Positions 33,072 to 64,000 of a DNA stretch of 64,000 bases are shown one piece after another (the first letter of the stretch is position 1; every line of letters starts with the position of its first letter). Made by a program: the position numbers and the translations under genes. The notes under the pieces are model-generated. The model saw only the letters and a list, made by a program, of their open reading frames with translations, was not told the origin of the DNA and did no database searches. The stretch comes from an uncultured cyanobacterium (GTDB taxonomy: Bacteria; Cyanobacteriota; Cyanobacteriia; Cyanobacteriales; Cyanobacteriaceae): NCBI GenBank assembly GCA_963710605.1, contig CAVQBA010000005.1, positions 160,001 to 224,000 of the forward strand, written 5' to 3'.

Positions 33072-33369
33072 TGTAGAGTGACAATAAAGTTGGTAACTTT
33101 CAACCTATTAAAGCCTTATTACTTCGTCAATAAAAATTGAAACTAAATAAATAAAGTTGGTAACTAAAGACTAACTAAGCTTTTTCTCTACAATTTTAAT
33201 GACAATAAAGTTAGTAACTTTTCTGAAAACTATATAGATGAATGTGTTTACAATATAATTTTTTAAATTAAATTATTAAAACTTTTGTTTAAGATCGCAA
33301 TCGTGCTACGCCTGCCGCTTTAAGCGATCGACAAATCTTTTTGTAATAGGATAATAAAGTTGTATAACT
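33072..33369 (+). mobile_element. Tn7-like transposon end with TnsB-type binding sites
   Basis: TGT-AGAGT then GACAATAAAGTTGGTAACT (33080-33098); further copies at 33126-33144 (degenerate), 33147-33165, 33201-33219, 33350-33369; same layout as the Tn7 end TGT-N5-GACAATAAAGT. Confidence 0.72.
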
Positions 33370-33883
33370 TAGGTAATACCTTATTTTATAATAATCATAT
33401 ACTAGTTATTTAATTAAAAATAAAATCTACTGTCCTAAGCTATCTTCAGTCTTGAAATGTTACATCATTTTCAATAAGATTCGATCGACTTCAGTCGCCG
33501 CTGCGCGATCGTGTAGTACCGTTCTACGCACAATCGCAAATGTGATTAATTGTCAAAATCGATCGAGTAGTAATACTAAGAAATTGAGGAAATGAGAATC
33601 TCTAAAGTTATCATCCGATTAAAAAACTGAGGGAAAATCTAGATTAGTACTACTAAGGCGTATTATTTTGAGAATATGAGAACTCAAAAAGATACACTTA
33701 TTAGTTAATTCATACGATCGCTATTAGTAATTTAATAACTTTGTCATGAAGAGTAAAAGTTATTATTTTTTTTATTTTTCCCTCCAGTGATTGTACTCCG
33801 TAATATCTAAGCTCCTCTTATTTTTAACTTGACGAAATAAATTTCTACAAGTGACAAATAATTTGCCACTTATGGAAATCGAT

Positions 33884-34543
33884 TTAGCAACCCATCGGTG
33901 AATGACAATCACCATAAAAAGGATCGATCGGTTTGACTGGATTGGGACGAGAATTATTTTGAGTTGATGTATTATTTTCAATCGGAATATTTCGATCGTT
34001 ACTCGGTTGCGAATTATTAGACATACCACCACTAATCCATCCATCTAAAACTAGACCCATAAGTAATAATTGTGCAGCTACTTGTTGTTGTCTGATTTGC
34101 TGTTGTTTTTCAATATAAGCTTGTTGTTCGCTTGGAGAAAGACTTTCAAAATAAGCTCTTCTTCTGACTGCTTCTTGAATTTCTTGTTCTTTTGCCGCCG
34201 CACGAGCTTGTGCAAGTTCTTCTTGTCTTCTTTTTCTTTCTTCTAAACGTATTTGACGTTGCTGTTCGGCTATTTCTCTTTTTTCTCGTTTTTCTTCACG
34301 TACTTTTTCTTGCTCAACTATGTCTAATACATCATCAACTCCCTCCTTTACATCATTAAATACATCCCAAAAACCAGCAGTCAATATATTGTCTGACGGT
34401 TGTGAGAGTAATAAATCAGCAGTATCGATCGTATTGGGTTCAATTTTATTTAGTCCATCTTGACTAGCGGATACAGTCGTAAAACTGCCTGAAACCAAAA
34501 TCAGACTGCTTGCAAGAGTACATATACTTTTATTTCTTTTCAT
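33884..34543 (-). CDS. Hypothetical secreted coiled-coil protein
   Basis: Signal-peptide-like N-terminus, E/R/Q-rich helix, C-terminal CHSPMGC. Confidence 0.65.
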   Translation of the reverse strand: MKRNKSICTLASSLILVSGSFTTVSASQDGLNKIEPNTIDTADLLLSQPSDNILTAGFWDVFNDVKEGVDDVLDIVEQEKVREEKREKREIAEQQRQIRLEERKRRQEELAQARAAAKEQEIQEAVRRRAYFESLSPSEQQAYIEKQQQIRQQQVAAQLLLMGLVLDGWISGGMSNNSQPSNDRNIPIENNTSTQNNSRPNPVKPIDPFYGDCHSPMGC

Positions 34544-34625
34544 AATTAATCTGTGTTTGTATTAACTGAGTTGTTTCGATTAATAACTAGAATAAATTAA
34601 TTATGAGGAATAATCATGTTGCTCG

Positions 34626-34639
34626 TGCGAACAACTAAA
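34626..34639 (-). promoter_or_regulatory. Shared upstream motif copy A (TTTAGTTGTTCGCA)
   Basis: About 83 bp upstream of ATG 34543, same strand. Confidence 0.6.
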
Positions 34640-34806
34640 TATATGTAGAAGATTGATGTTAAAACTTTTACAGTTAATAGGTTTGAGATTTTGGTGATAT
34701 TTTCAAACAAGATAAGATAGACGATCGAATAGTCAAAATCGATCTTATTTTCTTTCTGTGTTGAGAAGATACAATTATTGAAAGAAAGTTCTTTTTCTCA
34801 ACGAAA

Positions 34807-35670
34807 TTAGTGAGTTAAACTAGAAAAATACTCAAACCATTGTTTTACATTAATTTTCGCTCCTGCGGCATTTTTATGACCACCACCACCATAGTGTTTA
34901 GCTACTTGCGATACATCAGCACCACCATTTTTACGACTACGAAGGTTAATCACGATCGTATCATCAATACAACTCCACATCACTACATATGGTGCTTGAG
35001 GAAATTTATCATACATAGCTTGACAAGTTTCTGAGACCATATGAGGGCTATTAATCATCGGTACTCGATCTGGTTGTTCTGGCAGATTAGCCCAATAAAC
35101 ATTTTTTAATTGATTTTTAACTTGATTTTTTCCTGCTCGAACAATAGTCTTACCTTGTTCGACTAAGTTTGAGACATATCGATCGTCATTTAATAAGTTT
35201 TGCCAAGTATCTAAATCAAAATCAACTAAATTTAATACTGCTTCGGTGAAAGGTTTTGTTTGTTCTATTTCCCATTTCCATAAATCTCGATCGTCAAACA
35301 TCTTTACTGACCAAGGTAAGGGAGATTCGGGGAAGAAGTAATTCCAAGTTAATACTGCTCCCGATTTGTTTAAGTTAAAGAAAGCTCCTGATAATCCCAT
35401 TAACGCCTCTTGGGCTGTTTTATGGTGATCGAGTATAATTACCTTTTGATGATCGTTTTGTAATTCTAAAATGATGTTTCGAGGATAACTGAAGTCTAGT
35501 AGATAGATAACACTGTTTTTCCCCATTTTTGGTACGGGAGATTGGTGATAACCTGCAATGTATTCTACTTTTGTATTGGGATGATGTTCTTGAAAAAATT
35601 TGTATGCGATGGTAGCTGAACAGAATCCATCTAGACAATTGCCATGATAGATAACATAAGTTTTAGTCAT
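34807..35670 (-). CDS. DHH/DHHA1-family phosphoesterase
   Basis: YHGNCLDG, LLDFS, ILDHHKT, DDRDLW, GGGGHKNAAG. Confidence 0.9.
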   Translation of the reverse strand: MTKTYVIYHGNCLDGFCSATIAYKFFQEHHPNTKVEYIAGYHQSPVPKMGKNSVIYLLDFSYPRNIILELQNDHQKVIILDHHKTAQEALMGLSGAFFNLNKSGAVLTWNYFFPESPLPWSVKMFDDRDLWKWEIEQTKPFTEAVLNLVDFDLDTWQNLLNDDRYVSNLVEQGKTIVRAGKNQVKNQLKNVYWANLPEQPDRVPMINSPHMVSETCQAMYDKFPQAPYVVMWSCIDDTIVINLRSRKNGGADVSQVAKHYGGGGHKNAAGAKINVKQWFEYFSSLTH

Positions 35671-35825
35671 TAGTTAGCTAGTTTATTTTGTTAATAGACA
35701 ATAATGTTACGAATACTCGATAACTCTCGAAATATAGTAAGGATTTGAAGAGTTTTCAGAGTAATGTTTAGTTGGTTGCCGATCGATTTTGCTTAATTAG
35801 TTAAAGTAACTTTTTTCTGCTCAAA

Positions 35826-37421: not shown

Positions 37422-37435
37422 TATCTAGTTACCTC

Positions 37436-37972
37436 CTAATCATTTTTTGGTTCGCCTAATACTGCTACTGCCCAAAAAGACCATTCTTTGGATAATTGAA
37501 TGGCAAGACGATTTAAACCTGTATATCTTCTTAAGGGTAAGTTAATTAAAGTAGATTCGTCATCAACATCAAAATTACTACCACTGAAACTTTTGAGTTT
37601 GATCAAAAACTGTTGATAAACATAACCTTTATATTTAGTATCGGAGGCAGTACCAATGAGGAATTTTTGGGCATCACCACTCAAACGATGAAGCCCCCAT
37701 GTAGAAATATAAGCAGTTAATCCTCTAATAAGGTTACAGGCTTTACTGTCATAACTATTTCCTCCTAATTCTCGATGGAGAATTGTTTTTAATTCAGTTA
37801 AACCTTTATAAGCTTCTTGGCTAAAAGAGCGAGAATCTAGTTTCATCGTAGTCAGTCGCTTTTGAGTAGGTTGTACATTAGATTGATTCATCGTAGATGA
37901 TTTACTAACGTTTGTTGTAGCTGGTACTGTTTTGTTTTGTTGCTTATATTTGTTTTTGCGTTGTTTACCCAT
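37436..37972 (-). CDS. cmr5: Putative Cmr5-like small subunit
   Basis: Small helical protein between cmr4 and cmr6; YISTWGL motif; call rests mainly on position. Confidence 0.6.
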   Translation of the reverse strand: MGKQRKNKYKQQNKTVPATTNVSKSSTMNQSNVQPTQKRLTTMKLDSRSFSQEAYKGLTELKTILHRELGGNSYDSKACNLIRGLTAYISTWGLHRLSGDAQKFLIGTASDTKYKGYVYQQFLIKLKSFSGSNFDVDDESTLINLPLRRYTGLNRLAIQLSKEWSFWAVAVLGEPKND

Positions 37973-38003
37973 AGTATGAAAACTCCTGTCAATTAATATT
38001 GTT

Positions 38004-43280
<5,277 letters not shown>

Positions 43281-43357
43281 TATTATTTAACCATGATATT
43301 GTTATCAGCAACTTTGGCAATCATAAAGTTAATTAAAAATAAATACAATCATTTTCC

Positions 43358-43370
43358 TGCGAACATCAAA
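43358..43370 (-). promoter_or_regulatory. Shared upstream motif copy B (TTTGATGTTCGCA)
   Basis: About 78 bp upstream of the cas10 ATG. Confidence 0.6.
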
Positions 43371-43419
43371 ATAGTTAATAATTTGTTAAAAAACTACATT
43401 AAAAATACATATGTTTTAG

Positions 43420-43717: not shown

Positions 43718-45140
43718 CTCTGGTTTAACTACTGGAGAACAATTAATGGAAACTTAAACCACAAAATTGCTAGCATAAAACAAATGAACACTCTGGTTTA
43801 ACTACTGGAGAACAATTAATGGAAACATGTCGATAGAGATTTCATCTTTATCGTCGAAAATTGCTCTGGTTTAACTACTGGAGAACAATTAATGGAAACA
43901 TGCCGCCAGAAATTATATTTTGCCCGTAGAACTCAACCTCTGGTTTAACTACTGGAGAACAATTAATGGAAACATTTTCATACTCTTCAATTAATTTTTC
44001 TTGTATTTTTCTCTGGTTTAACTACTGGAGAACAATTAATGGAAACTCTCCTAGTAGGTTTTGTACCCCTTGGAAAAAAGCGTCTCTGGTTTAACTACTG
44101 GAGAACAATTAATGGAAACTTATGAAGCGTGTAGCGCTTTCATAAAATCTTCTAACTCTGGTTTAACTACTGGAGAACAATTAATGGAAACTTTTTTTGA
44201 GTAATTTCTTCTTTTTGTTCTTTTCTCTGGTTTAACTACTGGAGAACAATTAATGGAAACAAAAGATCGCCAACCTGAGGTGAAATTTCACTTCCTCTGG
44301 TTTAACTACTGGAGAACAATTAATGGAAACGGATATACGATTTCTCCGGCTTGAGCTACTTCAACACCAAACTCTGGTTTAACTACTGGAGAACAATTAA
44401 TGGAAACCTCCAGGTGATTCCTGTAACCTTGGGTGAGATCCTACTCTGGTTTAACTACTGGAGAACAATTAATGGAAACTACGATGACCCAGAACACTAG
44501 TAGTCGTTGGTGGGTACAATTCTCTGGTTTAACTACTGGAGAACAATTAATGGAAACTGGTTTGCAAATGAGCATTCAGTGAGACGCTTTACTCTGGTTT
44601 AACTACTGGAGAACAATTAATGGAAACTCCAGCTCTTCATTATCGTTAACTCGGCCAACTTGATTCTCTGGTTTAACTACTGGAGAACAATTAATGGAAA
44701 CTTCTATTAGAGGAACGAGAAGGGCGATTACTCTCCTCCTCTGGTTTAACTACTGGAGAACAATTAATGGAAACTTGCGTTCTTCTTCACAGAAGAGTTG
44801 TTCGAGTTCCCCTCTGGTTTAACTACTGGAGAACAATTAATGGAAACGTTGAATGCATTCTTTAAATCGTTTCCAAATTCTGCTAGGCTCTGGTTTAACG
44901 ATCGGAGAACAATTAATGGAAACGAGACTAAGCTGACAAAACTGTCAGCTTTCAAAAAATTACACTCTGGTTTAACGATCGGAGAACAATTAATGGAAAC
45001 GTTGAGACAAGTACGATCTCCTGTGTGACTGTTAGCTCTGGTTTAACGATCGGAGAACAAACAATTAATGGAAACGAAAAAAGAATCACTGGAGTTACAG
45101 CAATTGCTGTCTCTGGTTTAACGATCGGAGAACAATTAAT
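43718..45140 (+). CRISPR. CRISPR array: 20 repeats, 19 spacers (33-42 nt); repeat CTCTGGTTTAACTACTGGAGAACAATTAATGGAAAC
   Basis: 16 identical 36-nt repeats (43718-44847), then 4 variants with CGATCG; repeat 19 has a 4-nt duplication and repeat 20 is truncated; 3' GGAAAC and degenerate right end give + orientation. Confidence 0.98.
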
Positions 45141-45204
45141 AAAAGAGGATGAAATTTGCTATTTTTTACAGTGGCAGACTTCATTCTTTTTTTTTGTTGA
45201 CTGA

Positions 45205-45626: not shown

Positions 45627-45676
45627 TCAAAAATAGAGACAATTGTTTTTTTTAAACTAGACTCAGAAATAGTAAC

Positions 45677-45786: not shown

Positions 45787-45802
45787 TTAATAGAATGATT
45801 AT

Positions 45803-51099: not shown

Positions 51100-51573
51100 A
51101 TGAGTAAGTCATCAAGAAAACTAAAGAAAGTTTACAGTCATAAGTTGACTCTTTTTTGTCTGTTACCTCTTCTACTTGGAGGACTAATTTATATTTTATT
51201 TCGCCCCAACACTTTATTAATGTTTCATTGGTTTGAGTTGATGAGTATTGGCGATGAAGTAGAAATAGCGAGAAAAATTTTTGCTCCACTATATCCATTT
51301 ATTCCCGAACCAATTATTTTTAGTTTACCTTTTGCTTTATGGTCATTTTCTTTGGCATGGTTTTTAGAACTTGTTTGGAATCAAAATAACAACAAGAAAT
51401 TAAGCGATCGTATTTTTTGGTTAACTTTAATTATTTCTTTAGGCTTAGAATGCCTTCCCCACTTCTATCAAAGTTTGGGGTGGTTTTGTGTTGATGATGT
51501 GATGTGGATTTTTATTTCACTAGTTTTGTTCAAAATAATTAGGAGTGTAGAAAATGATTGGAAAATTCAATAG
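51100..51573 (+). CDS. Hypothetical multi-TM membrane protein
   Basis: About four hydrophobic segments; GGLIYILFRP..FSLPFALW. Confidence 0.75.
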   Translation: MSKSSRKLKKVYSHKLTLFCLLPLLLGGLIYILFRPNTLLMFHWFELMSIGDEVEIARKIFAPLYPFIPEPIIFSLPFALWSFSLAWFLELVWNQNNNKKLSDRIFWLTLIISLGLECLPHFYQSLGWFCVDDVMWIFISLVLFKIIRSVENDWKIQ

Positions 51574-52229
51574 AATACGAACATTAGTAATGTTCTTCGG
51601 TTTAACTTTATTCGCAGTTTTAGCTGTTGGTTCAACTGATTCTGTTCGCTAACATTGATAATTTTACTCAAAAATCACAACAAATTTCAAATTTATTTGA
51701 TTCGATCCAACAATTATCCGATACAACTATAACATCGGTTGACGAAGGTTACCAAGATTTAGGTACTTATATTCAAGAAAAGAATATCTCTAATCAAACA
51801 ATTCAGTTAGTGGAGGCAAAGTATGAACAAATGAGTAGTAGCTTTGACGAGCTTAAATCAACTCTTAACAAGGTAGAAAATGAGGCAAATACTTTATTTC
51901 GATTACTCAGAAAAAGAGCTCGTGAGAGTACTGACACTAATTTGAGAGAAAAAATGATTTTTGGTATCAGTGATAAAGAAGCTATTATTCAGGAAAAAAT
52001 CTCAATCGTTAAGCAAGTTTTAAGTGAAATAAGTCTTTCAATACAAAATTATGACAACATTCTCGGTTACATTCAAGTAACGACTATTACCGAGCAAACT
52101 GGTAATCAAATTCTGGGTGATATTAATTTAATTCTTGAAAAATCTCAGTTACTTCGGGCTAACATTAGACAGTCGATGGAGGATGCAAAACAAATTATTC
52201 AAGTATGGATCAACTATAACAATTATTAG
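51554..52229 (+). CDS. Hypothetical exported coiled-coil protein; probable +1 frameshift near 51647
   Basis: ATG 51554 gives signal-like MIGKFNRIRTLVMFFGLTLFAVLAVGSTDSV; removing one base joins it to ANIDNFTQKSQ... Confidence 0.6.
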
Positions 52230-52324
52230 TACGATCGAGTACATTTGGATCCCCAGCTCATCCCCCGCGGTTTCGGGGGACTTGCAAATAATTAATCTTA
52301 ATTAAATAGACTGTATCTTTTAGT

Positions 52325-52350
52325 GGTGGGCAATGTCCACCTTTTTTTTT
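52325..52350 (+). terminator. Intrinsic terminator
   Basis: GGTGGGC-AAT-GTCCACC plus T9. Confidence 0.7.
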
Positions 52351-52809
52351 ATGATCTTGTAGTAAGGGCTGAAGCCCTTATTTTTGCAATTGTTAAAAGA
52401 TGTCTATCATCATGACTAAAATTGTAATTTTGTCGATCGCTAAATTAGTTACTATTTTGGGCTAATTGGATCTTTACTAACACGGCTTCGATCGACTGAT
52501 TTTCTTTGATTTATGACTATGGTGTCAGCGATCCAGTAAATTCTTATATTTAACTAAATCTGAAAATATTTACTAATAAAAATAGCTTAAAAGTTAATTA
52601 AAACAATAAATTTAGATCGATATCATACCAATTCAAATGAAGGAAAATAACAGTTATTTTGAGTAAGTCCAAAAAGTGAAAAGTGAAACATTTTTTATCT
52701 TCCCTCATGATTGGGGGATAAAAGGGGGAAGAAATTAGTGGCGAATTATATGTAGCTGTAAATGAATTGTTTTGAACAGTTGAATCAGACTTCCTCTCCT
52801 TTGAAGAAG

Positions 52810-52965
52810 CAGGGCTGTTTCATGTCTTATTTTTGTAATTTCTACAACTAAGAAATAGCAGTAAATAGATCGCAGTTTTTTCTAATAGTAAAAAGATCAT
52901 GTAACTAAATCGATCGATCGTATAGTAATAATAGCTTCTAGCTATTTTCTTCTTCCGAGAATCAA
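52810..52965. mobile_element. Inverted copy of the CAGGGCTGTTTCAT MITE
   Basis: Reverse complement of ~47800-47957. Confidence 0.75.
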
Positions 52966-52994
52966 GTTCCCCTCCTTTGAAGGAGGGGTTAGGG

Positions 52995-54249
52995 CTTACC
53001 CCACCACATACAAATTTTAATTATATAATAAGCTATAATTTATTGACCGTCAATATTATAACTACTATATCGAGATGGAATTAAAAGATAAAACTTGGCA
53101 AAAACCTTTTCAGTCAATTTCTTCACTATTTTCACTCTCAAGGAAAAACTTGTTCTCGTAATATTGCACTTGTTAGTTTAAGTCTACTTCAATTCTCTTA
53201 CCGCTAACACTTATGCTATTGCACGTGGTTTATCTTCTCTCACAGACAAAAGTTTTAATTCTTGCGAAAAAAGAGTCAATCGTTTTTTCGATAGTCAATA
53301 TTTTCAAATTGACGATAATTTATTTCGTTCTCATAAAAATTTTATCTTTTCCGCTCTCGAAGAAATGAATTTAATTTCTTCAAAAAAACCTATTTTTATT
53401 AATGTTGATTTTACAACAAAACAAGATAATTTTTTGATATTATCTGCATCTATTCCTTTTATGAAAAGAGGTATACCGTTGTTTTTTACTATGCGTAACT
53501 ATCCTCAAAAAGCTGGTCAGTTAGATCAGAAAAAAATGGAGTTAGCTTTTATTAAGGGATTGAAGCACTTATTACCTAAGAAATATCAATATGTTATCGT
53601 TGCTGACCGAGGTTTTTGTACACAAAGATTTCTTCAATTGTGTTTGGATCATAATTTTAATTTTATTATTCGTGCTATCACTAATTTAAATCTCAATTTT
53701 AAAGGATTAAAAACGCTCTTTAAAGAAAATATCGCAAGGTAAATTAGACATAACTAATGCCTATATTCCTTCGTGGAATATGAAGCTCTCGATTAATTAC
53801 TAATCAAGAAAAAGAAAAAACATGGAAATTATTTACTAGCCTAAACATTAAAAATAAATCCATAATTTGCCAATATCAAGAACGCTTTAATATAGAGAAG
53901 ATGTTTCAAGATCAAAAATCTTCTTTATTTGACATAGAATCAACTCAAATTAAGAAATATTCGCTCGTTTAAAAAGCTTTACTACATAGTTAACTTAGTT
54001 CAAGCATTAATGATGTTAATGGGCTATTTCATGTCAGAAAAAATGCCCAAGATTAAAAAAAAATATCCAATTCAAAGCGAAATGATTTTTCCATTATCCA
54101 GCAAGTTAGGTTATTAGTCTCTAATTTCGGTACTATTTTCAAGCGTTTATTTAATTTATTTTTTAACCGACTCAACGATCGAATTAAAGATAAATATTAT
54201 CGATATTCTTCTTTTTTTACATAGCTATTTTTATATGTGGTGGGGTAAG
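52995..54249 (+). mobile_element. IS4-family-like insertion sequence with degraded DDE transposase
   Basis: 16-bp TIRs CTTACCCCACCACATA (52995-53010 / 54234-54249), 10-bp target duplication GGGGTTAGGG on both sides; NVDFT, VADRGF, RFNIEKMFQDQKS motifs across broken frames. Confidence 0.88.
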
Positions 54250-54396
54250 GGGGTTAGGGGTGGTAGAGATGTCCTAATCTTACTTCCTACTACTATATAT
54301 AGTCTGTATCTTATCAAACTGAGAATTACTGTAAATGAAGACTTAAAAATGATCGCTCAATATTATCTTACTAGATTTTTAAGTCTTTTTGTACTA

Positions 54397-54410
54397 TTTA
54401 CTTGTTCGCA
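54397..54410 (+). promoter_or_regulatory. Shared upstream motif copy F (TTTACTTGTTCGCA)
   Basis: 113 bp upstream of ATG 54523. Confidence 0.6.
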
Positions 54411-54522
54411 CAAAAGCAATGTAAATTTGCCTAAGTTCAAGATAATTTGTAATTACCTCAATTAAAAGTGCTAAGTCATTTTAGCGATTGAGGTATCAAG
54501 TCAATTTATCAAATAACAATTT

Positions 54523-55735
54523 ATGTCTAATAAAGAAAGGAATAAATTCAAAGATATTTTACCTACCTTCATCGCATTTTTTGAAAAAGAACGTGGAGGA
54601 TTACGCATTAATGCTCGTACAGGTAATCTAGAAACAGGAGATGGTCAAGAACTACAAAATACTAATCATATAGGTGCTATTTTAATGTTTGAGGCAGAGA
54701 TAAATATTTCTGACAAAATTATCAACCGTATTCTTTGCTACATCAGAAAAAACTCACCCGATCGTCATTACGAATCCCGTATTTAACTATCTCAAATCTG
54801 TACAGAGTTTAGGAATTAAATCTGATTGGCTTAAAGGTAAAGCAAAGAAATGGTTGGGTTTAGAAAGCGAACTAGACCAAAAATATTTTGAATTAACTCT
54901 AGTTGCCGCTGTCGCACGGGCTATTCAACCTGGATGTAAAAAAGATGAAATATGGGTTTTACATGGAGAACAAGGTATTGGTAAATCAACATTTTGTCGA
55001 GCTTTAGTTCCCGATAACAAATTGTTCACAGACTGCATCGAATGGGAAAAGTTTAATCAAGATACGAAAAGACAATTAAATCGAAACTGGATTGTGGAAT
55101 GCCCTGAAATAAGTACTATAAACAAACCTAATAAGCTAAAACAGTTTTTGACAACTCAGGTAGATGAATTTCGACAATGGTGGACTCCTGATTTTGTGGT
55201 TTTACCACGTCGATCGATTATCATCGGTACAACTAACGATCAAGATTTACTTACCGACGTAACAGGAAACCGACGTTTTTGGATTTCATCTATTCCCCGA
55301 AACTTTACTATTCCGATAGAGGATATTGACAACTGTCGAGATGATATGTGGTGTGCCGCAATCGATCTTTTTAATCAATTATCCCAAACGAAAGAAAAAT
55401 GGAGTTTACCTGCCGACTTAGAATCCGAGCAAAAAATTCGTAATAAAATATTTTCTCCTGATAATCATTTAAAATTTACGGTACAAAAATATTTACTCGA
55501 GATGTTTAACAAACATCTTAAAGAAGATAATGATAAAGATTCTTTTTTCACGAGTGTCTATCAAATTCGTAATAGTTTATTTGATTCCTCATCTAATAAA
55601 TTAGATAAACAAATAACCAAAATATTACGGGAATTGGGTTTTAGATGTACGGGAGAAAGAATGCGTCTTTCTGGAATACCTATTCGTACTTGGAAGCCTT
55701 ACTGTTTTGATTGGATTGATGCGGAAACAAAATAA
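54523..55735 (+). CDS. VapE/VirE-like P-loop ATPase, split by a +1 frameshift near 54772
   Basis: Restored YNPVFNYL; AVARAIQPGCK, GEQGIGKST, WIVECPE, GTTN..LTDVTGNRRFW. Confidence 0.82.
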
Positions 55736-55851
55736 TCTTACCTCACTTATTTTTTGAAATACGATCGAACGCCGAAATGAAATTAGTTTTGTTACGGCGT
55801 TTTTTACTGGAGAACTTGATTTAAGTATATTCATCTCTAATTTTTGCTCAA

Positions 55852-55865
55852 TTTAGTTGTTCGCA
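55852..55865 (+). promoter_or_regulatory. Shared upstream motif copy G (TTTAGTTGTTCGCA)
   Basis: 76 bp upstream of ATG 55941. Confidence 0.6.
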
Positions 55866-55940
55866 TAGAAACTTTACTAAACAACCGAATATGTCTTTAT
55901 TTTAGAGATAGTAATATTACATCACTTCCAAGAGCTATTT

Positions 55941-57272
55941 ATGATGAGCAAGAGACACAAGCGAAAAAACAATAATCACAACAACAAATCTATTTTATTT
56001 CTACTCGGTCGTATTCCCTATCATATTTTAATCTTAATTCAAAGTCTTTTAATTTGGTGTACTGGTACAACTCGTCGAGAATTACCAGAGCATTTAAGAA
56101 AGCCCTATGCAGGATTGGGAACAATGGCGATCGTTTCTACTAGTCTGGCTACTTTTGGCGGTTATACATTCATTTTAATTTCTTTAGGCTCGCCATTAGG
56201 AGGGATTGTTGGTGGATTAGCCGCAGGTAGTTTTATGTGGGGGATGGATCGTTCTGTGTTAGGATTTCCTACTCCTGTTAATAAAAATTCTAACTCTAAG
56301 TTAAATGGATCGTTTTGGGTCAAATTAACTGTTAATATCGCTTTTTCATCTATCTTAACTGTACCTTTATCTACACTAATGTTGATGGGTGCAGTTCAAG
56401 TAAAAAACATAGAACAAGTAGAAGATAAGATCGAAAAAATTGATATTAAGTTAGATAATAAAGAAATCGCTCTCGCAGAAATTGCCAAAAAATTAGACTA
56501 TTATGACAGCAATTCTCAACTAAGGGTTACTGTTATTGATGGTGAACCAAAACCCAATACACAATTTATAGACGGCCATGAAGCCACCCAACAAACCGAC
56601 GAACAAACCAGAGCTGAAAAACAGCTACTTTTAGAGGAAAAACAAGAATTAAAACAACAAATTACGGCTTACGAAGATGGAGATTTAAGTAAATCATCTT
56701 TAAAATTCCCCGAACAATTCAACCATGTCATGACTGAAGCTCGTTGGACAGATAACGTTCTTAGCTTCTTGTTTTTCACGATAACAGCTTTAATGGGTTC
56801 GGGAGCCGTTTTGATTAAAACCTTTGTCTTTACTGACGATGCCAATAGTAAAAGACTAGAAAGATTGGAAAAAGAAGCAAAGGAAGAAGAACAACTAAAA
56901 TACGTTATGAAGACTTCTGCCAATCAAATTTGCTATTCCGTTTTTAATGCTGAAGCAATGGATGAGGATTTAGGTAATAAGTTAAAAACCATGCAAAAAC
57001 AGTTTGAAACTGAAGTAGTTGAGCTTCATCAATCCTTTTACGACGGACGATTAGCGAAAATGCGGACAAATATCGCCAATCAAGCCGCTGAAGAGAAGAT
57101 TAGTTTGATTAATAATTCAATCAATAATGTTAATTCTCACAATGGTAATACGAAGTACAACGTACCATCTAATAAATCCTCTTTTAACGGCGTTAAGAGT
57201 AGCCATAATGGTCAGTCTGATGTTGCGACAGAGAATGACATCATCAACTTTCTGAATAACACTAAGAAGTAA
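55941..57272 (+). CDS. Hypothetical membrane protein with coiled coil (DUF4407-like architecture)
   Basis: YAGLG..three TMs..MDRS, coiled coil, late TM ending VLIK. Confidence 0.6.
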   Translation: MMSKRHKRKNNNHNNKSILFLLGRIPYHILILIQSLLIWCTGTTRRELPEHLRKPYAGLGTMAIVSTSLATFGGYTFILISLGSPLGGIVGGLAAGSFMWGMDRSVLGFPTPVNKNSNSKLNGSFWVKLTVNIAFSSILTVPLSTLMLMGAVQVKNIEQVEDKIEKIDIKLDNKEIALAEIAKKLDYYDSNSQLRVTVIDGEPKPNTQFIDGHEATQQTDEQTRAEKQLLLEEKQELKQQITAYEDGDLSKSSLKFPEQFNHVMTEARWTDNVLSFLFFTITALMGSGAVLIKTFVFTDDANSKRLERLEKEAKEEEQLKYVMKTSANQICYSVFNAEAMDEDLGNKLKTMQKQFETEVVELHQSFYDGRLAKMRTNIANQAAEEKISLINNSINNVNSHNGNTKYNVPSNKSSFNGVKSSHNGQSDVATENDIINFLNNTKK

Positions 57273-57361
57273 ATGCTCCCATCAAGTGTGTTTTACATCA
57301 TCTAAGACACACTTACAGCCAAACTCTAACAACTTATTTATTAACAACAAGGTAAACTAAT

Positions 57362-57928
57362 ATGAAAAACCAAAACAACGACATTCCTTTAACGACGATA
57401 GAAAAAGATAACTCTTCTGCAACTCCAACAATTAACAACTTAGCTCAACAATTTATGGAGCTACAACAAAGTGATAATCTAACTCCCTATCAACAAGGAG
57501 GTTTTGTTCAACGTATTTTTGCGAGTAAGGAAGAAAAGTTACAACGCACACACCAGATGGAAAAAATGATTGCCTACCAAGATTACGAAATGAGAATTGG
57601 TAAAGCTATGTGTGAAGCTAAAGAAAAAGAACTTCAAATGCAAATAGCCTCGGCGTTATCTCAAAAAAGAGTTACTTTAGATTTGCAAACCAAACAATGT
57701 ATTGCTGAAAATTATCAGCGATTTAGCGTTACTATTAACGATCGTCTTGCTGAAGCAGTAAATTTATACTTAAAGGGTTTAAAAGATGCCGAGTTAATTC
57801 CTAACGAAAAAGCTAAACAAAAATTAATTGATTATGCCGAGCAAAAATTTGAGCAAGATTGTCAATTAATGGAGGATTTAGTTGCTGATTTTCTTAAAAA
57901 TGTTTATGCAGATTTAGAGAATCAATAA
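57362..57928 (+). CDS. Hypothetical helical protein, probably co-transcribed with 55941-57272
   Basis: 188-aa ORF, AAGG upstream, terminator downstream. Confidence 0.7.
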   Translation: MKNQNNDIPLTTIEKDNSSATPTINNLAQQFMELQQSDNLTPYQQGGFVQRIFASKEEKLQRTHQMEKMIAYQDYEMRIGKAMCEAKEKELQMQIASALSQKRVTLDLQTKQCIAENYQRFSVTINDRLAEAVNLYLKGLKDAELIPNEKAKQKLIDYAEQKFEQDCQLMEDLVADFLKNVYADLENQ

Positions 57929-57978
57929 AATCATTTTGGCTTTATTATTACTAAAAAATAAATATTTAAAAACGATCG

Positions 57979-58005
57979 AGACTAGATAATTTCTAGTCTT
58001 TTTTT
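57979..58005 (+). terminator. Intrinsic terminator
   Basis: AGACTAGA-TAATT-TCTAGTCT plus T tract. Confidence 0.65.
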
Positions 58006-58124
58006 ATGTTTACTAAAAGGTTAGAAATATAACAGTTATATAAATATTTAAACTAATTAATTTTTTAAGTCTTGCTTTTGAAATTAGTATCGTTCTCCTT
58101 ATATAATATAAATTAGTAAATATA

Positions 58125-58261
58125 TATAGCAATACTAAATCATTTGTGATATATCAAAAAATAGTAAATAAACCTCAAACTTTTAAATATTGTCAATTGT
58201 CAATTGTCAATTGTCAATTTTTCAACACGAAAAATGCTACAACTCAAATAGTATTGCTATA
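58125..58261. repeat. TATAGC-family MITE with ATTGTCA heptamer tandem repeats
   Basis: 13-bp perfect TIR TATAGCAATACTA/TAGTATTGCTATA; four ATTGTCA units. Confidence 0.75.
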
Positions 58262-58289
58262 GATGCCGTAAAATACTTTATTAATAATG

Positions 58290-58516
58290 GATATAGCCGA
58301 ACAAATTCGACGATATTTACCCAGAAACTCGATCGATACTGATGAGTGAAGCGATTGGGGTATTGTTATGGGCAGATTCTATGGCTATAGTGCTGAAAAT
58401 GGTTATTGGATGTGGTGTTATTTGGTTTTACTGGATTTAGATTCTCCTTCTGCTCGTTGGTGCGTTATCGATACGGCATGGGAACAAGATTTGGAGCTGT
58501 TAGATCGAGATAAATA
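58290..58516 (+). pseudogene. Small Trp-rich hypothetical gene remnant
   Basis: DWGIVMGRFYGY..WMWCYLVLLDLDSPSARWCVIDTAWEQDLELL preceded by an in-frame TGA; paralogue at ~62098-62400 (-). Confidence 0.55.
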
Positions 58517-58518
58517 AA

Positions 58519-58547
58519 TAAAAAAGGGTGCATTCCTGAATGCACCC
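58519..58547 (-). terminator. Intrinsic terminator
   Basis: GGGTGCATT/AATGCACCC stem with T tract on the minus strand; conserved in the inverted copy at ~62072-62098. Confidence 0.7.
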
Positions 58548-58569
58548 CGAATATCCTATTAAGCCATCT

Positions 58570-59640
58570 TTATTTGGTATCTTCAACCAACTGTTTGAGT
58601 TTTTCAAACATATTTTGATATAACCAAATTGCTAAATGTGACAATCCTAGTTTCACGGCAATCGTAGTCGGTAAGATACCAGTCCAATAAGCCTTTAACC
58701 AAATACGTTCGGTATCGATTCTATCATTAATCTTTTTAACGATGTTCGGAGCAGTGTTATAGTATTCTTTAATCAGTTCTTTTCCTGTGGGTGTAATGGA
58801 TAAGTGTGTATCTCGAAATAAACGTAAAGTTTGTAATTCCCAACAATCATCAGGAAGACCTATTACAGAACAAGTTGCTGTGGTTAAAAAGCAACGAGTC
58901 TCTGCTTTACATTTACCAGTTGTCAAATCTTTGATTAGATTATTGGTAATACCATCAATTTTTTTGTTGATTGTTCCAAGAACACTATGAAGATTTTGTA
59001 TATCAAAATGTGCTTCTAATAATGGAGAGCCAGATATTTCACTAGCAACTAATTTAATTTTTTTGTCATTACTAGATAGTGCTTTGATAAGAGTTGGATT
59101 TTTATTAGTACTATCTCTGTGATAAATGTCATAAGTAAAATACTTACCACCCCCTTTTGCTGCAGATAAATCTATTTTTTCATTTTCATACAATAAATTT
59201 GAAGTTTTTAAATCATAGAGTTTCAAATTAATAAATTCAACAGAGTTCTTATTTTTAATTAATTCTGCTATTTCAAAATTGATACTCCAAGTTTCTACCT
59301 CAGTGTAAGAAATTTTTATTGAACAAGTAAAAGGTATATTGAGTACTTTGCTAGAAGTAATTTGTTTTTGCCGAAAAGTTTCTTTAGACGGACCAAAGTG
59401 AACAGAACCGTTATACCCGACTAATTCAGGTATTCCTGCTTCATCACGTTCGTTTGCTAGAGTAAATCTGTTCTTAGCAAGAATTTCTCCCGATTGCGAT
59501 CGAATAGTTAAAACATTACTACAACGAGGTTTTTTATTTTGAGCTATTGCGGGTTTTATTTGCGTCAAACCCAATCCAGTAATTAAAGCAATAGAGCGTT
59601 TTCCTGTTGATTTTAAAAAGTTTCTTCTGTCTGTTTTCAT
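58570..59640 (-). CDS. Tat-exported protein with C-terminal CFI-box-CTERM-like domain
   Basis: DRRNFLK twin-arginine signal; CFLTTATC...DDCWELQTLRLFRD...LIKEYY..AP. Confidence 0.8.
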   Translation of the reverse strand: MKTDRRNFLKSTGKRSIALITGLGLTQIKPAIAQNKKPRCSNVLTIRSQSGEILAKNRFTLANERDEAGIPELVGYNGSVHFGPSKETFRQKQITSSKVLNIPFTCSIKISYTEVETWSINFEIAELIKNKNSVEFINLKLYDLKTSNLLYENEKIDLSAAKGGGKYFTYDIYHRDSTNKNPTLIKALSSNDKKIKLVASEISGSPLLEAHFDIQNLHSVLGTINKKIDGITNNLIKDLTTGKCKAETRCFLTTATCSVIGLPDDCWELQTLRLFRDTHLSITPTGKELIKEYYNTAPNIVKKINDRIDTERIWLKAYWTGILPTTIAVKLGLSHLAIWLYQNMFEKLKQLVEDTK

Positions 59641-59744
59641 TGTTAATCTTTTTTATTATTTATGGTAAAAAAGGACAAATATCAGAACCTTATAAACTCA
59701 TAGTTTTAAAAGTCGAATTTGTCCTAGTTAAATTGGTAGTTGTT

Positions 59745-60128
59745 TTATTCGGAAATCGAACAACTTCGAAGTACATTTGTGGTGACTAGAACTTTTTTTG
59801 CATTTGTATCCCACTGCAAAGAGGGTAGAATTCCCTGACCGCCAACGGCTTCAGTCTTGCTATAAATTTCCTCTAAAGCTAATAAATCTAATGTCAGAGA
59901 GGAAACTAAGTTCGGTTCTTGAATTTGTTCTTGAGCAGACAATATAATAATGTCTTCTGCGTCGAGTGTATCTTGGTAATTTAATTTATCTAATGTCAAT
60001 TTAGTTGAACCAATGACAAATTTATTATTACTATTCGTTGCAATACAATCATTATTAGCAGATGCTTCAACTAAGCTGGTTTGGAACAAAGCAATTATTG
60101 TGAAAGCAAGGATGTTAATTATTTTCAT
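59745..60128 (-). CDS. Hypothetical secreted protein
   Basis: Sec-type signal peptide; two Cys; GGAG upstream. Confidence 0.65.
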   Translation of the reverse strand: MKIINILAFTIIALFQTSLVEASANNDCIATNSNNKFVIGSTKLTLDKLNYQDTLDAEDIIILSAQEQIQEPNLVSSLTLDLLALEEIYSKTEAVGGQGILPSLQWDTNAKKVLVTTNVLRSCSISE

Positions 60129-60292
60129 GGCTTTTAATTCTCCGTTAATATATTTTCTCGTTAAGTAGTTAATCTAATGTGGTGAATAAAGAAATCGATC
60201 GAAAAAGGCGATTGATAATCAATATTGTTGTAAGGGTTTGTGCCTCTGATTTTTATTATGATGATCAAACTAAATAATCTTATGTTGTTTGA

Positions 60293-60305
60293 TGCGAACA
60301 ACAAA
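60293..60305 (-). promoter_or_regulatory. Shared upstream motif copy H (TTTGTTGTTCGCA)
   Basis: 165 bp upstream of ATG 60128. Confidence 0.55.
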
Positions 60306-60484
60306 CATATAGTTAAAGAAGGAATCATAATAGACTTGTTGCGAAATAAATAAAAATATCCAACTCTTTATTCATCTTGCCTTTATTAAATTTCTTCTTC
60401 TTTATGCTGCCTCTAGATAAAAGTTCCATAAACCTGAGGCAGTTAAAATTAGCTTATCGTCAAATTTAAACACACGATTCTTAT

Positions 60485-60770
60485 AGAACCTATTTGAGAT
60501 CTATTAACAATTAGCTAATAGCTAATCTTTTAAGCATTAATCGTAGAAAACATAAATTAATTTTAGTTGTGGCGTTAGCCAAGGTTCATTCAAAGTTTTT
60601 GACCAAGATGAATACATCTCTCCATCCAAGAATTTGTTCTTTCAATGACCAATCTAGCTTTGATAGGAACAAAACCCGATTTCCCTTGAGTTTCTTTTTT
60701 CGCTTTAGATGGTTTGTTAGCCAGTTGAAATCTTATTTTCCTCATGATACTGGGATAAACTTCTTCTAAT
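60485..60770 (-). mobile_element. IS5-family transposase 3' fragment (left boundary approximate)
   Basis: GFVPIKARLVIERTNSWMERC; interrupted upstream by the IS1634-like element. Confidence 0.7.
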
Positions 60771-61856
60771 CCCTTATTCCGCATGTTAAAAATAAACTAC
60801 AAAAACATTACCTGATATATTCTCTTTATCAAGATATTTTCCGAGAATATTTAACTTTTTTTCCATTCACTAATTTCAATTTACTCATTTTTCTTTCTTT
60901 TTTCCACCGCAAAGCCTCCCTCTTTTTTTGAGGTCTATTTATTTATTTTTCTCTCCATTTTCTACTCTAAATATAATAATATTTTTGGCAATTTTCACCA
61001 AAATAATTCACTGTTTTTTTCCTTTCTTTATTTATGTTTATTTGCTCTTACTTTTCTACTTTTATTAAATGTATTCCTTGAAATAATTGAAATATCCATT
61101 TTAATGTTGGTTTCTGGGATTGTTTTGATAGTTTAAGATTAGTTGAGAAAAGCTACTCTTTTCTGACTCACTTCCCGAACCTACTCTCATAAACAATGGG
61201 ATATCTCCATCATTTGTTGTCATTATATTGAGCAAAAATTGATTGAGATTCTGGTCTTTTGTCCCGTGAGTATCCCTTGTTTATTTTAATTATATTCTCT
61301 TGACAATATTTTGATTCTTCTCCATAATTATATTCTCCTTGAACCGATATAGATGTCCCATCCAAATGACTAAATTCTGTATCTAATTTAAATACGTTGA
61401 TGGTGTTTATGCCGATTTTTGTCCATAATGATTCCACAGATATATCATAGAGTTTATCCATTACTCTCCCTATTTTATCGTCATTAATTAATTCTGCTTT
61501 AATCCCAGAACCTAATAACTTATCTACTGGTTTGTCTTGAAAATATTGTGGAAATAAATATAATGGTTTGGATAAAAATCCTAAGCCATTAAGAATGATT
61601 GCCTTGACAATTAAACCTTGCAGAAATTTTTTCTCGCAAATCTTGAGGTATCATAGAATCGACGAGAGCGTTCAATTTGTAAATCATCGATAATACCTGC
61701 AACTAATCCTAAATGGTCTAAGTTTTGAACTTGTATTTGTTGAGTCATGACAACCCTCGTATCTATATTTATTCAATTATCCTCTTTTTTTCTGTCGATT
61801 TATCTAAGTATATTTATTTAGATGTTTCTCTTTCAAATTAAACTGCGGAATGTGGG
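60771..61856 (-). mobile_element. IS1634-family element, internally deleted and frameshifted
   Basis: MTQQIQVQNLDHLGLVAGIIDD, HLDGTSISVQGEY, GYSRDKRP; imperfect TIRs CCCTTATTCCGCA (60771) / TGCGGAATGTGGG (61844-61856). Confidence 0.8.
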
Positions 61857-62040
61857 CTATAACACTGCTCCAAACATCGTTAAAAAGATAAATGATAGAA
61901 TCGATGCCGAACGTATTTGGTTAAAGGCTTATTGAACTGGTATCTTACCTACTACGATCGCAATCAAACTAGGTTTCTCACATTTAGCAGTCTGGTTATA
62001 TCAAGAAATGTTTGAAAAACTCAAACAGTTGGTCGAATAG
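61857..62040 (+). pseudogene. 3' fragment of a second CFI-box-CTERM gene
   Basis: Near-identical inverted copy of ~58578-58762, with a TGG>TGA stop. Confidence 0.85.
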
Positions 62041-62097
62041 ACTAAACAAGAAGGGTTTAATAGAGCGTTCGGGGTGCATTTCGAGTGCACCCTTTTT

Positions 62098-62400
62098 TAT
62101 TTATCTTCATCTAATAACTCCAAATCAACTTCCCAAGCAGTATCAACTAAGCACCAATCGCTAAAGCGTGAATCTAGATCGAGTAATATTAAATAACACC
62201 ACATCCAACATTGATTGGCTAGGCTATAACCATAAAATCTCCCTATGACAATATTCCAATCAGTTAACTGCTCTCGATCGAATAATCGTCATCGTATAAC
62301 TTGCCCCATTGCATACATTAGTTTTTTGGTATCGAGAAAAAAGGAAGTATTATCGCTAGGAAGAGGTAAATTTTGATTAGCAGATAAAAGATTAGATATA
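62098..62400 (-). pseudogene. Second copy of the Trp-rich small gene, with an in-frame stop
   Basis: GQVIR*RLFDREQLTDWNIVIGRFYGY..CWMWCYLILLDLDS..DTAWEVDLELL. Confidence 0.55.
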
Positions 62401-62594
62401 GTTTTTACTTCCTCTTTCTTTTTCGATCGTCAGAAAATAAGTGATAGCTGTATAGTCTGCTAAATGTTGTAACCGAACTTCATCCAGATTAATTTTTAGT
62501 TTTTGGAATAATTGTCTGGCTTTCTGGCAAAGTAATCAATAATCATTTTGTTTCTATTTTAACCCAGTAATTATAAGGAGTTAAAATAGCTTGA

Positions 62595-62608
62595 TTTTGT
62601 TGTTCGCA
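62595..62608 (+). promoter_or_regulatory. Shared upstream motif copy I (TTTTGTTGTTCGCA)
   Basis: 80 bp upstream of ATG 62688. Confidence 0.6.
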
Positions 62609-62687
62609 CCATAATCGAACAAGACGATATATTACTAACGTATCTTAGTTATTATCACCGCAGTTAAAAAGGAGAAAGTTAGTACAA

Positions 62688-63083
62688 ATGAAAAAGATAT
62701 CAACTAATGGTAAAGGTTTTTTAGTTTCCTTAATTACATTATCAATGTTTTTGTTGAATGATTCTGTTGCCAGTGCCTTTCTTTTCGTCAATTGGAGTAA
62801 ATTTGAAGTAAAAGATGTTCATCCATGGGGATTTACTAATATTGTTGTTTTAGAAGACGAAGATAAACAAGAAAAATGGTATTTCATCCCAAAACATAAT
62901 GCTTTAGAAAGCTGTGACATTAATGAAGGAGATACAATTAAAGCGAGAGTATCAGAAGACAGCAAACAGTATAACGAGTATTTAGAAAGTATCAGAAATA
63001 AACCTTTGACGAAACAATTGACTAAATTTGTCGCAAATCGTTCTATTATTCGTCTTCAAGGCTGTTACAATTATGAACCTTAA
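62688..63083 (+). CDS. Hypothetical secreted protein
   Basis: AGGAG RBS, signal peptide ending ASA, two Cys. Confidence 0.7.
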   Translation: MKKISTNGKGFLVSLITLSMFLLNDSVASAFLFVNWSKFEVKDVHPWGFTNIVVLEDEDKQEKWYFIPKHNALESCDINEGDTIKARVSEDSKQYNEYLESIRNKPLTKQLTKFVANRSIIRLQGCYNYEP

Positions 63084-63206
63084 TAAAAATTAGATTCGTA
63101 GTTTTGAAACGGCAACTATAATTTAAGTCTCGCTATCGTACCATACAGTATGATTAACAGTGAGGCTTAAATTTTTATTTATTTGGTCTTCTATCATCTG
63201 AATATA

Positions 63207-63606
63207 TCAAGCTGTTTTTGACTGTTGTTTTAATTTGATGATTAAGTTTTGATAATGTTCTAGGGCGATACTACGAATTAAATGATGTAACCCCAAAACA
63301 CGTTGATTATTGTGATTGACCGATTCGTCAACCAAGAAGCGGTAAAATAGAGTCTGTAATGCCATTTCTTGTCTTTCTTCACTACACAATCGATTTTCTA
63401 TTCGTTTAATCAAGACTGCTAATTGCATAAACCATCCTTGATTTTGTACTGGAATTCGATAAACTCGTTGCCGCACAAATTAAATAGTAAGCATCGGGAG
63501 ATTGAGACTTTAAACGATCGAATACTGCTTTTAATCGTTGTCTATTCACTTCCAAACGAACTTTTCTCGTTAGTTTATGTAATTTCCAGTTATCATCACT
63601 ACCCAT
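63207..63606 (-). CDS. Hypothetical protein, apparently split across two overlapping frames
   Basis: Two overlapping same-strand ORFs (63406-63606, 63207-63476); no family recognised. Confidence 0.35.
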
Positions 63607-63805
63607 AACTTGAAGTGCATTATGTTCGGCTTCGGTAAGAGTTTTTTCTACAGTATTATATGAGTTATTTTTGATTGAATTAATCGATCGTTTTCATACT
63701 ATTAGTTTCGGAAAGAGACAACCATAGGGATATCTTTTTATTCAACGTCTTATTATATCGTTATCAAAAAACTAAACAAATATTTGTATTAATCAAGAAA
63801 AACTA

Positions 63806-64000
63806 TTAAGTTTTAACAATAATTAGTCTTTCTACCCGATCGAAGTCTTCACTTTTCAATCCTGCTAATTTCATAACTTTCCATACTTTGATATCTTGCC
63901 CTTGTTTATTTAGTCGATCGATCGCCCATCTTATCCTTCTTTCCTGAAACATTTCCACCGATTCAACAACCTTTTTCAAATAGGCTTTAGTTAAAGGTAA
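63806..64000 (-). CDS. tnsD: 3' end of a TnsD-family Tn7-like transposition protein (gene enters from the right edge; not in ORF track)
   Basis: Manual translation LPLTKAYLKKVVESVEMFQERRIRWAIDRLNKQGQDIKVWKVMKLAGL..., matching the TnsD C-terminal pattern (LPxT..ES..FQxRRIxWA..W..AGL). Confidence 0.72.
   Translation of the reverse strand, partial: LPLTKAYLKKVVESVEMFQERRIRWAIDRLNKQGQDIKVWKVMKLAGLKSEDFDRVERLIIVKT

Follow-up and report, generated by a model that had tools for sequence, protein, structure and literature searches.

The window analysed here is a stretch of 64,000 nucleotides of DNA from an uncultured cyanobacterium (contig C5, positions 160001–224000). Its right half contains a Tn7-type left end, a type III-B CRISPR-Cas locus and, at the very edge, the last codons of a tnsD gene. 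We also read the next 20 kb past the right edge, as stretch L001. Window coordinates past 64000 are extrapolated; they equal the L001 coordinate plus 62000, which is the contig C5 coordinate minus 160000. The features belong to an element that spans positions 33072–76990. It is 43,919 bp in length, 13 kb of which lie past the right edge of the window. The region is very probably a single type I-B1 CRISPR-associated transposon (CAST), of the AvCAST kind, situated at the Tn7 attachment site downstream of glmS. One mobile element holds two different CRISPR systems, namely the type I-B1 CAST machinery and a type III-B cargo.

Both ends of the element can be recognised. At the left junction (33067/33072) the sequence is GAAAG|TGTAGAGTGACAATAAAGTTGGTAAC; a longer read across the terminus at 33072 is ...GTTAATGAAAG|TGTAGAGTGACAATAAAGTTGGTAACTTT. 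Next to the terminus, the 22-bp site TGACAATAAAGTTGGTAACTTT occurs at 33079, ~33146 and 33200, the successive copies being 67 and 54 bp apart. We searched the whole assembly (3.93 Mb, seven contigs) for the 17-mer ACAATAAAGTTGGTAAC, allowing up to two mismatches. Matches were found on the plus strand at 33081, 33148 and 33202, and on the minus strand at 76895, 76925, 76945 and 76965. The sole further match is an isolated copy, with two mismatches, on contig C7. The clustering is far above chance and the copy on C7 is a lone chance match. At the right end, three of the four sites form a perfect 20-bp tandem and the terminus reads ...ATTTTACA at L001 14990. The termini, TGT...ACA, share the site 17-mer. 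The two ends are asymmetric, with contiguous sites at the right and spaced sites at the left. The stop codon of glmS is at L001 15015–15017, 24 bp from the right-end ACA. Each end is represented by a single cluster of sites in the genome, and no further end of this element lies between the two. No further Tn7-type end clusters were found in window positions 1–33300.

The initial annotation, made from the letters of the window, had proposed a Tn7-type left end at 33072. Its TGT terminus and three spaced TnsB-type sites are indeed matched, in inverted orientation, at the right end. The same annotation had taken a peptide at the window's edge for the C-terminus of TnsD. An HMM search supports this; the minus-strand frame at 63806–64000 is the C-terminal 64 codons of tnsD, and the complete open reading frame (ORF) lies at L001 1806–3767. 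The protein also matches the structure of Tn7 TnsD (chain 8glu, E 6e-32). To the right of the window, where tnsABC(D) and an inverted end had been anticipated, we found tnsA, tnsB, tnsC and the remainder of tnsD, as well as an inverted end finishing in ACA. As the annotation had also supposed, transcription of the tns genes runs from the right end into the element, and tnsD is the final core gene before the cargo is reached.

The core encodes more than a Tn7-type transposase. For TnsB, the nearest solved structure is chain 7pik of Tn7 TnsB (E 4e-125). Four Cas proteins are assigned to type I-B/MYXAN families by NCBIfam. Among them, Cas8 matches the solved type I-B Cas8 and Cas11 chains of structure 8fcj (E 5e-72 and 1e-09), which we take to be PmcCAST. 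Two selectors of the TniQ family are present; a short TniQ is encoded beside the cas genes and TnsD is the long one. A Pfam scan of 37 ORFs of the region, which left out the 90-amino acid (aa) ORF at 33772–34044 and frames overlapping larger genes, found no Cas3, Cas1, Cas2 or Cas4 family. Neither was there a match to a TnsE-like protein among the scanned ORFs. The ORFs at 63207–63606, considered as possible fragments of tns genes, have no similarity to them. All core genes are open and full length, and both ends are intact. The coordinates are listed in Table 1.

Table 1. Features of the element and its right-hand neighbour, in window coordinates (extrapolated past 64000).
Feature	Position	Strand	Remarks
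Left end: terminal TGTAGAGTG, then three spaced TnsB-type sites	33072..33221	+	sites 33079-33100, ~33146-33167, 33200-33221
Possible fourth, divergent site TGTAATAGGATAATAAAGTTGTATAAC	33342..33369	+	single copy in genome
ORF, 219 aa	33884..34543	-	no family match
DHH/DHHA1 phosphoesterase, 287 aa	34807..35670	-	end of cmr operon
Cmr6-Cmr1 fusion RAMP protein, 531 aa	35826..37421	-	
Cmr5, 178 aa	37436..37972	-	
Cmr4, 293 aa	38004..38885	-	
Cmr3, 397 aa	38867..40060	-	
Cas10/Cmr2, 994 aa	40296..43280	-	GGDD cyclase motif intact
Type III-B CRISPR array	43718..45146	+	19 detected 36-nt repeats, spacers 33-42 nt; divergent from cmr2
Csx1-type CARF-HEPN effector, 576 aa	45803..47533	+	PADLOC PDLC01808, E 3e-144
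WYL/WCX-domain protein, 737 aa	48399..50612	+	
Remainder of cargo, including orphan ORFs	51100..63606		
DDE transposase fragment	53365-53742		
VapE-like ATPase	54854-55735		
DUF4407-like ORF	55941-57272		
CFI-box-CTERM protein	58570-59640	-	
Short broken frames	~60590-61461		one tried on Pfam: no match
tnsD, 653 aa by TTG start	63806-65767	-	TnsD PF15978 E 9.6e-107; TniQ PF06527 E 2.7e-27
ORF, 80 aa	65856-66098	-	
Cro/C1-type helix-turn-helix protein, 79 aa	66368-66607	+	divergent
CAST mini-array	66637-66892	-	4 repeats, 3 spacers
cas5, 209 aa	67160-67789	-	Cas5/Cmx5 above NCBIfam cut-off
cas7, 316 aa	67790-68740	-	Cas7/DevR above NCBIfam cut-off
cas8, 548 aa	68743-70389	-	Cas8a1/Csx13 above NCBIfam cut-off
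cas6, 215 aa	70402-71049	-	Cas6/Cmx6 above NCBIfam cut-off
tniQ, 311 aa	71133-72068	-	TniQ is sole domain above cut-off
tnsC, 561 aa	72068-73753	-	AAA_22/TniB (Pfam)
tnsB, 748 aa	73765-76011	-	Mu-transpos_C (Pfam)
tnsA, 276 aa	76035-76865	-	TnsA N and C domains (Pfam)
Right end, four packed sites, ending ...ACA	76895-76990	-	site search
glmS, outside element	77015-78889	-	stop codon 24 bp from right end

The Cas8 protein contains a hydrophobic segment of 33 aa, encoded in frame by AT-rich DNA (L001 7808–7906; window ~69808–69906) that is unique in the genome. The segment is absent from the homologues in genomes G222 and G087. Conversely, the Cas8 proteins of G245 and G295, which are 75–79% identical, have the same length and hence appear to share it. 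We considered whether the segment is a defect or a repeat element. This was rejected, given that the DNA is unique in the genome and that the proteins of the closest relatives are equally long.

The cargo is dominated by the type III-B system, the proteins of which were identified by NCBIfam and PADLOC matches. In the array, 16 perfect repeats are at the cmr2 side and three degenerate repeats are at the far end. Hence, the leader adjoins cmr2. The DHH/DHHA1 phosphoesterase may degrade a signal nucleotide or nanoRNA, and signalling by cyclic oligoadenylate would be expected of the module. The type III-B genes, array, CARF protein (Csx1), WYL protein and orphan ORFs had been proposed to be the cargo of one transposon. 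All of them lie between one matched pair of ends, 43.9 kb apart. The identified genes between the ends are confined to defence, mobile-element and orphan genes; none is a housekeeping gene.

No Cas6, Cas1 or Cas2 family was found among the scanned cargo ORFs. Genome-wide, where Cas6_C (PF01881) was the only Cas6 family searched for, there was no match to this Pfam family. The III-B repeat folds into a hairpin of nucleotides 1–20, leaving AACAAUUAAUGGAAAC single-stranded; just one of 200 shuffled sequences folds equally well. The repeat has no counterpart elsewhere in the genome at seven or fewer mismatches. For Synechocystis, a type III-Bv system that likewise lacks Cas6 has been described (PMC12464536). 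Its 36-nt repeat has a stem-loop at nucleotides 2–18 and is single-stranded from 19 to 36. According to the same source, RNase E cuts the AU-rich part, 13 or 14 nt from the repeat 3′ end, to leave handles of 13–14 nt. By analogy, the CRISPR RNAs (crRNAs) of the cargo would be matured by host RNases, as by RNase E in III-Bv. The module should consequently work in any cyanobacterial host, without a Cas6 of its own, and such maturation would be well suited to a system passed from one cyanobacterium to another. A homologous III-B locus in genome G057 has an array repeat with a different hairpin and the same 13-nt tail, AATTAATGGAAAC.

Matches to the Cas1 family PF01867 in this genome are on contig C1 only, where two further CRISPR-Cas loci were noticed. 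In the first (C1:178009–178873), cas1 is split over two frames. In the second (C1:299270–303428), cas1 is beside the gene for another Cas10, which shares 37% identity with that of the cargo.

The CAST mini-array is 270 bp downstream of cas5, and its spacers 2 and 3 are identical. We compared the array with 301 genomes of the order. Related arrays were found in three genomes and a match to spacer 2 was found in G296, a member of the same family. Spacer 2 (window ~66746–66782; L001 4746–4782) agrees with G296:C28:1781–1817 at 31 of 37 positions, and at 28 of the 30 counted from the end next to the protospacer adjacent motif (PAM). The match is directly preceded by ATG, the PAM of AvCAST, and is the sole protospacer found. 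By a rough estimate, the chance expectation of a 28/30 match in that much sequence is ~1e-5. The match falls inside a 170-aa ORF of no known family that adjoins genes for an AAA+ ATPase and an IS4-like transposase. The site is a candidate for what the guide pathway targets in nature. The match is also the sole direct hint that the guide arm is real. No insertion was seen beside an ATG-flanked protospacer of the G296 type. Among phages the array has no match, and among plasmids there are just chance-level matches to its AT-rich tail (E 0.07).

The same gene order is found at glmS in G222, G087 and G057. We inspected the DNA beyond tnsD in four related CASTs, reading 42 kb in G222, 25 kb in G087 (as far as its own left end), 24 kb in G295 and 13 kb in G271. 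Seven queries (Cas10, Cmr3, Cmr4, Cmr6/1, DHH, Csx1 and WYL) gave no match in any of the four. Similarly, four of the five closest TnsB relatives are without such a Cas10 homologue, and the fifth has one 2 Mb away. The III-B block is therefore variable content of this element family. For the closest CAST relatives (G283, G245 and G295:C105), contigs end just after tnsB, and the cargo and left ends are unreadable there. A TnsD-based search for related loci among genome contigs gave 47 pattern matches, of which none was confirmed.

The closest TnsB proteins are 88%, 88%, 79% and 73% identical to ours, and all are in one genus of another family (f35). The best match within the window's own family is 54% identical. 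This indicates that the element arrived horizontally. Base composition offers no contrast; GC content is 31.5–34.7% in the element and 32.6–32.9% in the flanks.

The site downstream of glmS is a busy landing pad in this order. At least six of the 10 readable glmS loci of relatives have a Tn7-type right end (...ACA after AACTTTATT-type sites) 22–26 bp past the glmS stop codon. At the glmS loci of G001, G009, G012, G006, G011 and G024 (L014, L016–L019, L024), such right ends belong to at least three site families. In our element, TGTAATAGGATAATAAAGTTGTATAAC is found 270 bp inside the left end and resembles the terminal site of another Tn7-like family, seen at glmS of G002, G011 and G009. An older element may have left it as a relic, or else it is a fourth TnsB site that has diverged. 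The glmS locus of G001, a genome of the same genus that is 67% complete, retains a 151-bp remnant consisting of a right end with one site and the start of tnsA (G001:C188; L043 14702–14852). This remnant is 94.7% identical to the element, and the adjoining glmS DNA is 82–83% identical. Synteny around glmS in G001 was too rearranged to reconstruct an empty site.

A III-B locus also lies near glmS in G057 (G057:C1:1–40000; L050/L051). This genome has a related I-B1 CAST at glmS, with a broken tnsD and the R subunit of a type I restriction system in the cargo. The homologous III-B locus consists of cmr2-3-4-5-6/1, csx1, a long array and two cas1 genes, and its Cas10 is 54% identical to ours (tblastn).

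Several observations weigh against the reading of the region as one CAST with III-B cargo. The initial annotation had expected a 5-bp target-site duplication of GAAAG. The right flank is instead ACATA, which agrees with GAAAG at one of five positions, so there is no duplication. Therefore, a single simple insertion cannot have made both of the present junctions. That the whole 44 kb moved jointly is something that we infer; it is not recorded in the sequence. In G018 and G012, DNA homologous to the left flank runs on into a small gene that has no homologue in this genome; the missing neighbour suggests that the left end has undergone a rearrangement or a deletion. The III-B locus of G057 lies outside the CAST, across glmS. 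Hence, nearness to glmS is alone no proof of cargo. The III-B array has no match in phage and plasmid collections or in 300 other genomes of the order (only two candidates per genome scored), and its defence activity is for this reason unsupported by a known target. Spacer 1 of the mini-array has no match in the 301 genomes, and neither of the two distinct CAST spacers has a self-target in its own genome at eight or fewer mismatches. Finally, the assembly is just 85% complete by marker genes, and is in 7 contigs.

The left flank contains a 135-aa gene (32646–33053) and an ABC transporter (31133–32617), both on the minus strand. The transposon terminus is 18 bp upstream of the start codon of the 135-aa gene, and has replaced whatever drove transcription of that gene. 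The DNA of the flank is 85% identical to that of G018 and G012, which represent two other genera, compared with ~75% between our glmS DNA and that of G012. Judged from these identities, the left flank may itself have been horizontally exchanged. Homology of G018 and G012 to the flank breaks 0–5 bp from the TGT terminus. It would be rare for a random deletion to stop exactly at the terminus; hence, the left junction looks as if it was made by the transposase, at a second target. It looks like a secondary junction, the DNA between it and the original glmS-side flank having been lost. Such a pattern would result from recombination between two copies and likewise from an intramolecular event. If the left junction had come from RNA-guided insertion, a protospacer would be expected in the DNA that follows the left-flank homologues of G018 and G012. 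None was found for the CAST spacers at the expected distance, and the best local scores were 6–9. Among relatives, G087 keeps four of the five positions of its own duplication, while G002 is also without one. The missing duplication bears on the history of this copy, and not on the family of its genes.

Could the arrangement be explained without one intact CAST? The repeats at 33072–33221 might be an operator or promoter element of the 135-aa gene; the initial annotation had raised the operator as a case against itself. Their place 18 bp upstream of the start codon of that gene would suit such a role. The homologues in G018 and G012, 85% identical in DNA, are however without the repeats, and the alignment breaks at the TGT. 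Furthermore, the same 17-mer forms the inverted right end beside tnsA. The operator is thus excluded by the homologues, and we give it a vanishingly small probability. There is just as little chance that the element is an ordinary Tn7-like transposon, with tnsABCD only and no RNA guidance, that carries III-B cargo. This was the view of the initial annotation, which saw no sign of RNA-guided transposition. The absence of such a sign holds only inside the window, where there is no cas6, cas7, cas8 or cas12k. Just past the window's edge, however, tniQ, cas6, cas8, cas7, cas5 and the mini-array are located between tnsC and tnsD.

We also consider it unlikely that the region is a composite or a fossil, in which the left end at 33072 and the CAST core at glmS arrived separately and were made into a unit by a secondary event. 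Candidates for that event are recombination between two copies, intramolecular transposition, a deletion adjacent to the left end, or the capture of chromosomal DNA. Some or all of the cargo, including the III-B system, may in that case never have been moved by the transposon. The absent duplication is in line with such a history. So are the G018 and G012 homology that stops at the TGT and the loss of the next gene, which fit a junction at a second target followed by loss of DNA. The 151-bp remnant of G001 shows that large deletions occur at the glmS site, and G057 has its III-B locus beside glmS but outside the CAST. Conversely, a composite is difficult to reconcile with a single left and a single right cluster of sites, the lack of an internal end, and the lack of an identified housekeeping gene between the ends. 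The core genes are open and full length, and the 33-aa segment of Cas8 is shared with the closest relatives. Moreover, the cargo would not be altered by recombination between two copies or by an adjacent deletion outside the left end.

As a single I-B1 CAST, the element would work as follows. TnsA and TnsB, encoded at the right of the element, would together be a cut-and-paste transposase, for which TnsC would be the AAA+ adaptor. Of the two selectors, the long TniQ-family protein TnsD would read the 3′ end of glmS and set the right end 24 bp past the stop codon. The geometry of the right end shows that the element arrived at glmS via TnsD. The other selector would consist of the short TniQ, a nuclease-free type I-B Cascade (Cas6, Cas8/Cas11, Cas7 and Cas5) and the three-spacer array. 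By homology, TniQ-Cascade would direct insertion into other replicons, at a point ~80 bp downstream of a protospacer that is flanked by ATG. The ~30 kb from the left end at 33072 to tnsD would be cargo, chiefly the self-contained, Cas6-less type III-B module. This module would give RNA-targeting immunity to any host entered by the transposon. The element is presumably active.

Cross-talk between the two CRISPR systems was also considered. The III-B array could supply guides to the CAST Cascade-TniQ, or the CAST Cas6 could help to mature III-B crRNAs. Hu et al. (2024; PMC11300857) report genomes that have both an I-B CAST and a III-B system, and show that CASTs can use crRNAs of co-resident defence arrays when the repeats fit structurally. 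The I-B CAST accepted just the structurally most similar foreign repeat (PMC11300857). The phrase 'within the transposon' does not occur in that article. Here, the CAST and III-B repeats share no sequence, and the hairpin is 3′-proximal in the CAST repeat but 5′, with a long tail, in the III-B repeat. Cross-use of guides is unlikely because of these different folds, and we regard cross-talk as a whole as very unlikely. Were it to take place, a transposon unable to acquire spacers would gain a portable target library; here the long, defence-type III-B array is itself carried by the CAST.

Rfam and tRNA scans of the window and L001 detected one gene, tRNA-Leu (GAG) at 26305–26387 (+), which is outside the element and 6.7 kb to its left. 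Other Tn7-like elements of cyanobacteria use tRNA-Leu genes for attachment, but beside this one neither tns genes nor end repeats were seen. Within the cargo, a heptamer run (ATTGTCA x 4.4 at 58189–58219) and a neighbouring sequence of ~35 nt recur on many contigs of G001, and are a dispersed short repeat.

This element is an example of a CAST whose cargo includes a complete further CRISPR-Cas system, different in type from its own. The Cas6-less III-B module should need just a housekeeping RNase of the host, a possible reason for its travelling well. There are few type I-B1 CASTs, and they are wanted as genome-insertion tools. The present copy belongs to a clade with relatives of 75–88% identity; it is a testable example and comes with a candidate natural target and PAM. 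Together, the missing duplication and a breakpoint that falls precisely on the terminus preserve a small trace, in nature, of the way in which these elements remodel adjoining DNA.

In its described anatomy, the element most resembles AvCAST of Anabaena variabilis ATCC 29413. Both have separate tnsA and tnsB, tnsC, a short tniQ and a long tnsD; in both, the type I-B Cascade genes come with a short array but no adaptation module. In an account of AvCAST (PMC13251919, a 2026 preprint), the right end is 24 bp from the glmS stop codon, TnsB sites are contiguous at the right end and widely spaced at the left, the Cascade PAM is ATG, and insertion occurs 78–81 bp downstream. The proximal right end, 24 bp past the stop codon, the arrangement of sites and the ATG are thus common to the two. 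The right end here has four sites, whereas three are reported in that account. Our element also differs in having no target-site duplication, a clade-specific 33-aa segment in Cas8, and a complete type III-B cargo. With Tn7 of E. coli, the element shares the TnsB and TnsD matches, the glmS site, asymmetric ends and TGT/ACA termini. Here, however, the second pathway, that of TnsE, is replaced by a TniQ-Cascade module; no TnsE-like match turned up among the scanned ORFs. The type I-B (MYXAN) Cas8 and Cas11 are a likeness to PmcCAST, which is of type I-B2. CASTs of type I-B2 home to tRNA genes. PMC9881144 describes fused tnsAB for type I-B2, unlike the separate tnsA and tnsB at glmS here, and describes type I-B1 with a short TniQ and a long TnsD.

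The III-B cargo, likened by description, resembles CRISPR3 (III-Bv) of Synechocystis sp. PCC 6803. As that system is described, both combine a Cmr-type effector with a locus that lacks cas6, and in both the repeat is 36 nt long, with a hairpin on the 5′ side and an AU-rich tail left single-stranded on the 3′ side. The difference is that the III-B locus here is the cargo of a transposon. Type I-B1 CASTs at glmS are already known, and the rare cargo is the unusual part. A literature search, with supplementary tables and figures outside its scope, found no description of a CAST that carries type III-B cargo. In a survey of 6,549 Tn7-like transposons (Benler et al., 2021; PMC8649781), complete CRISPR systems are infrequent in cargo; minimal I-B systems number nine, and type III systems with cas10 were present in two transposons, both in Proteobacteria. 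Those two, as described there, and our element are alike in having a complete type III system with cas10 between Tn7-type ends. Our element differs in its host, which is related to cyanobacterial hosts of CASTs, and in that a CAST is what carries the type III system.

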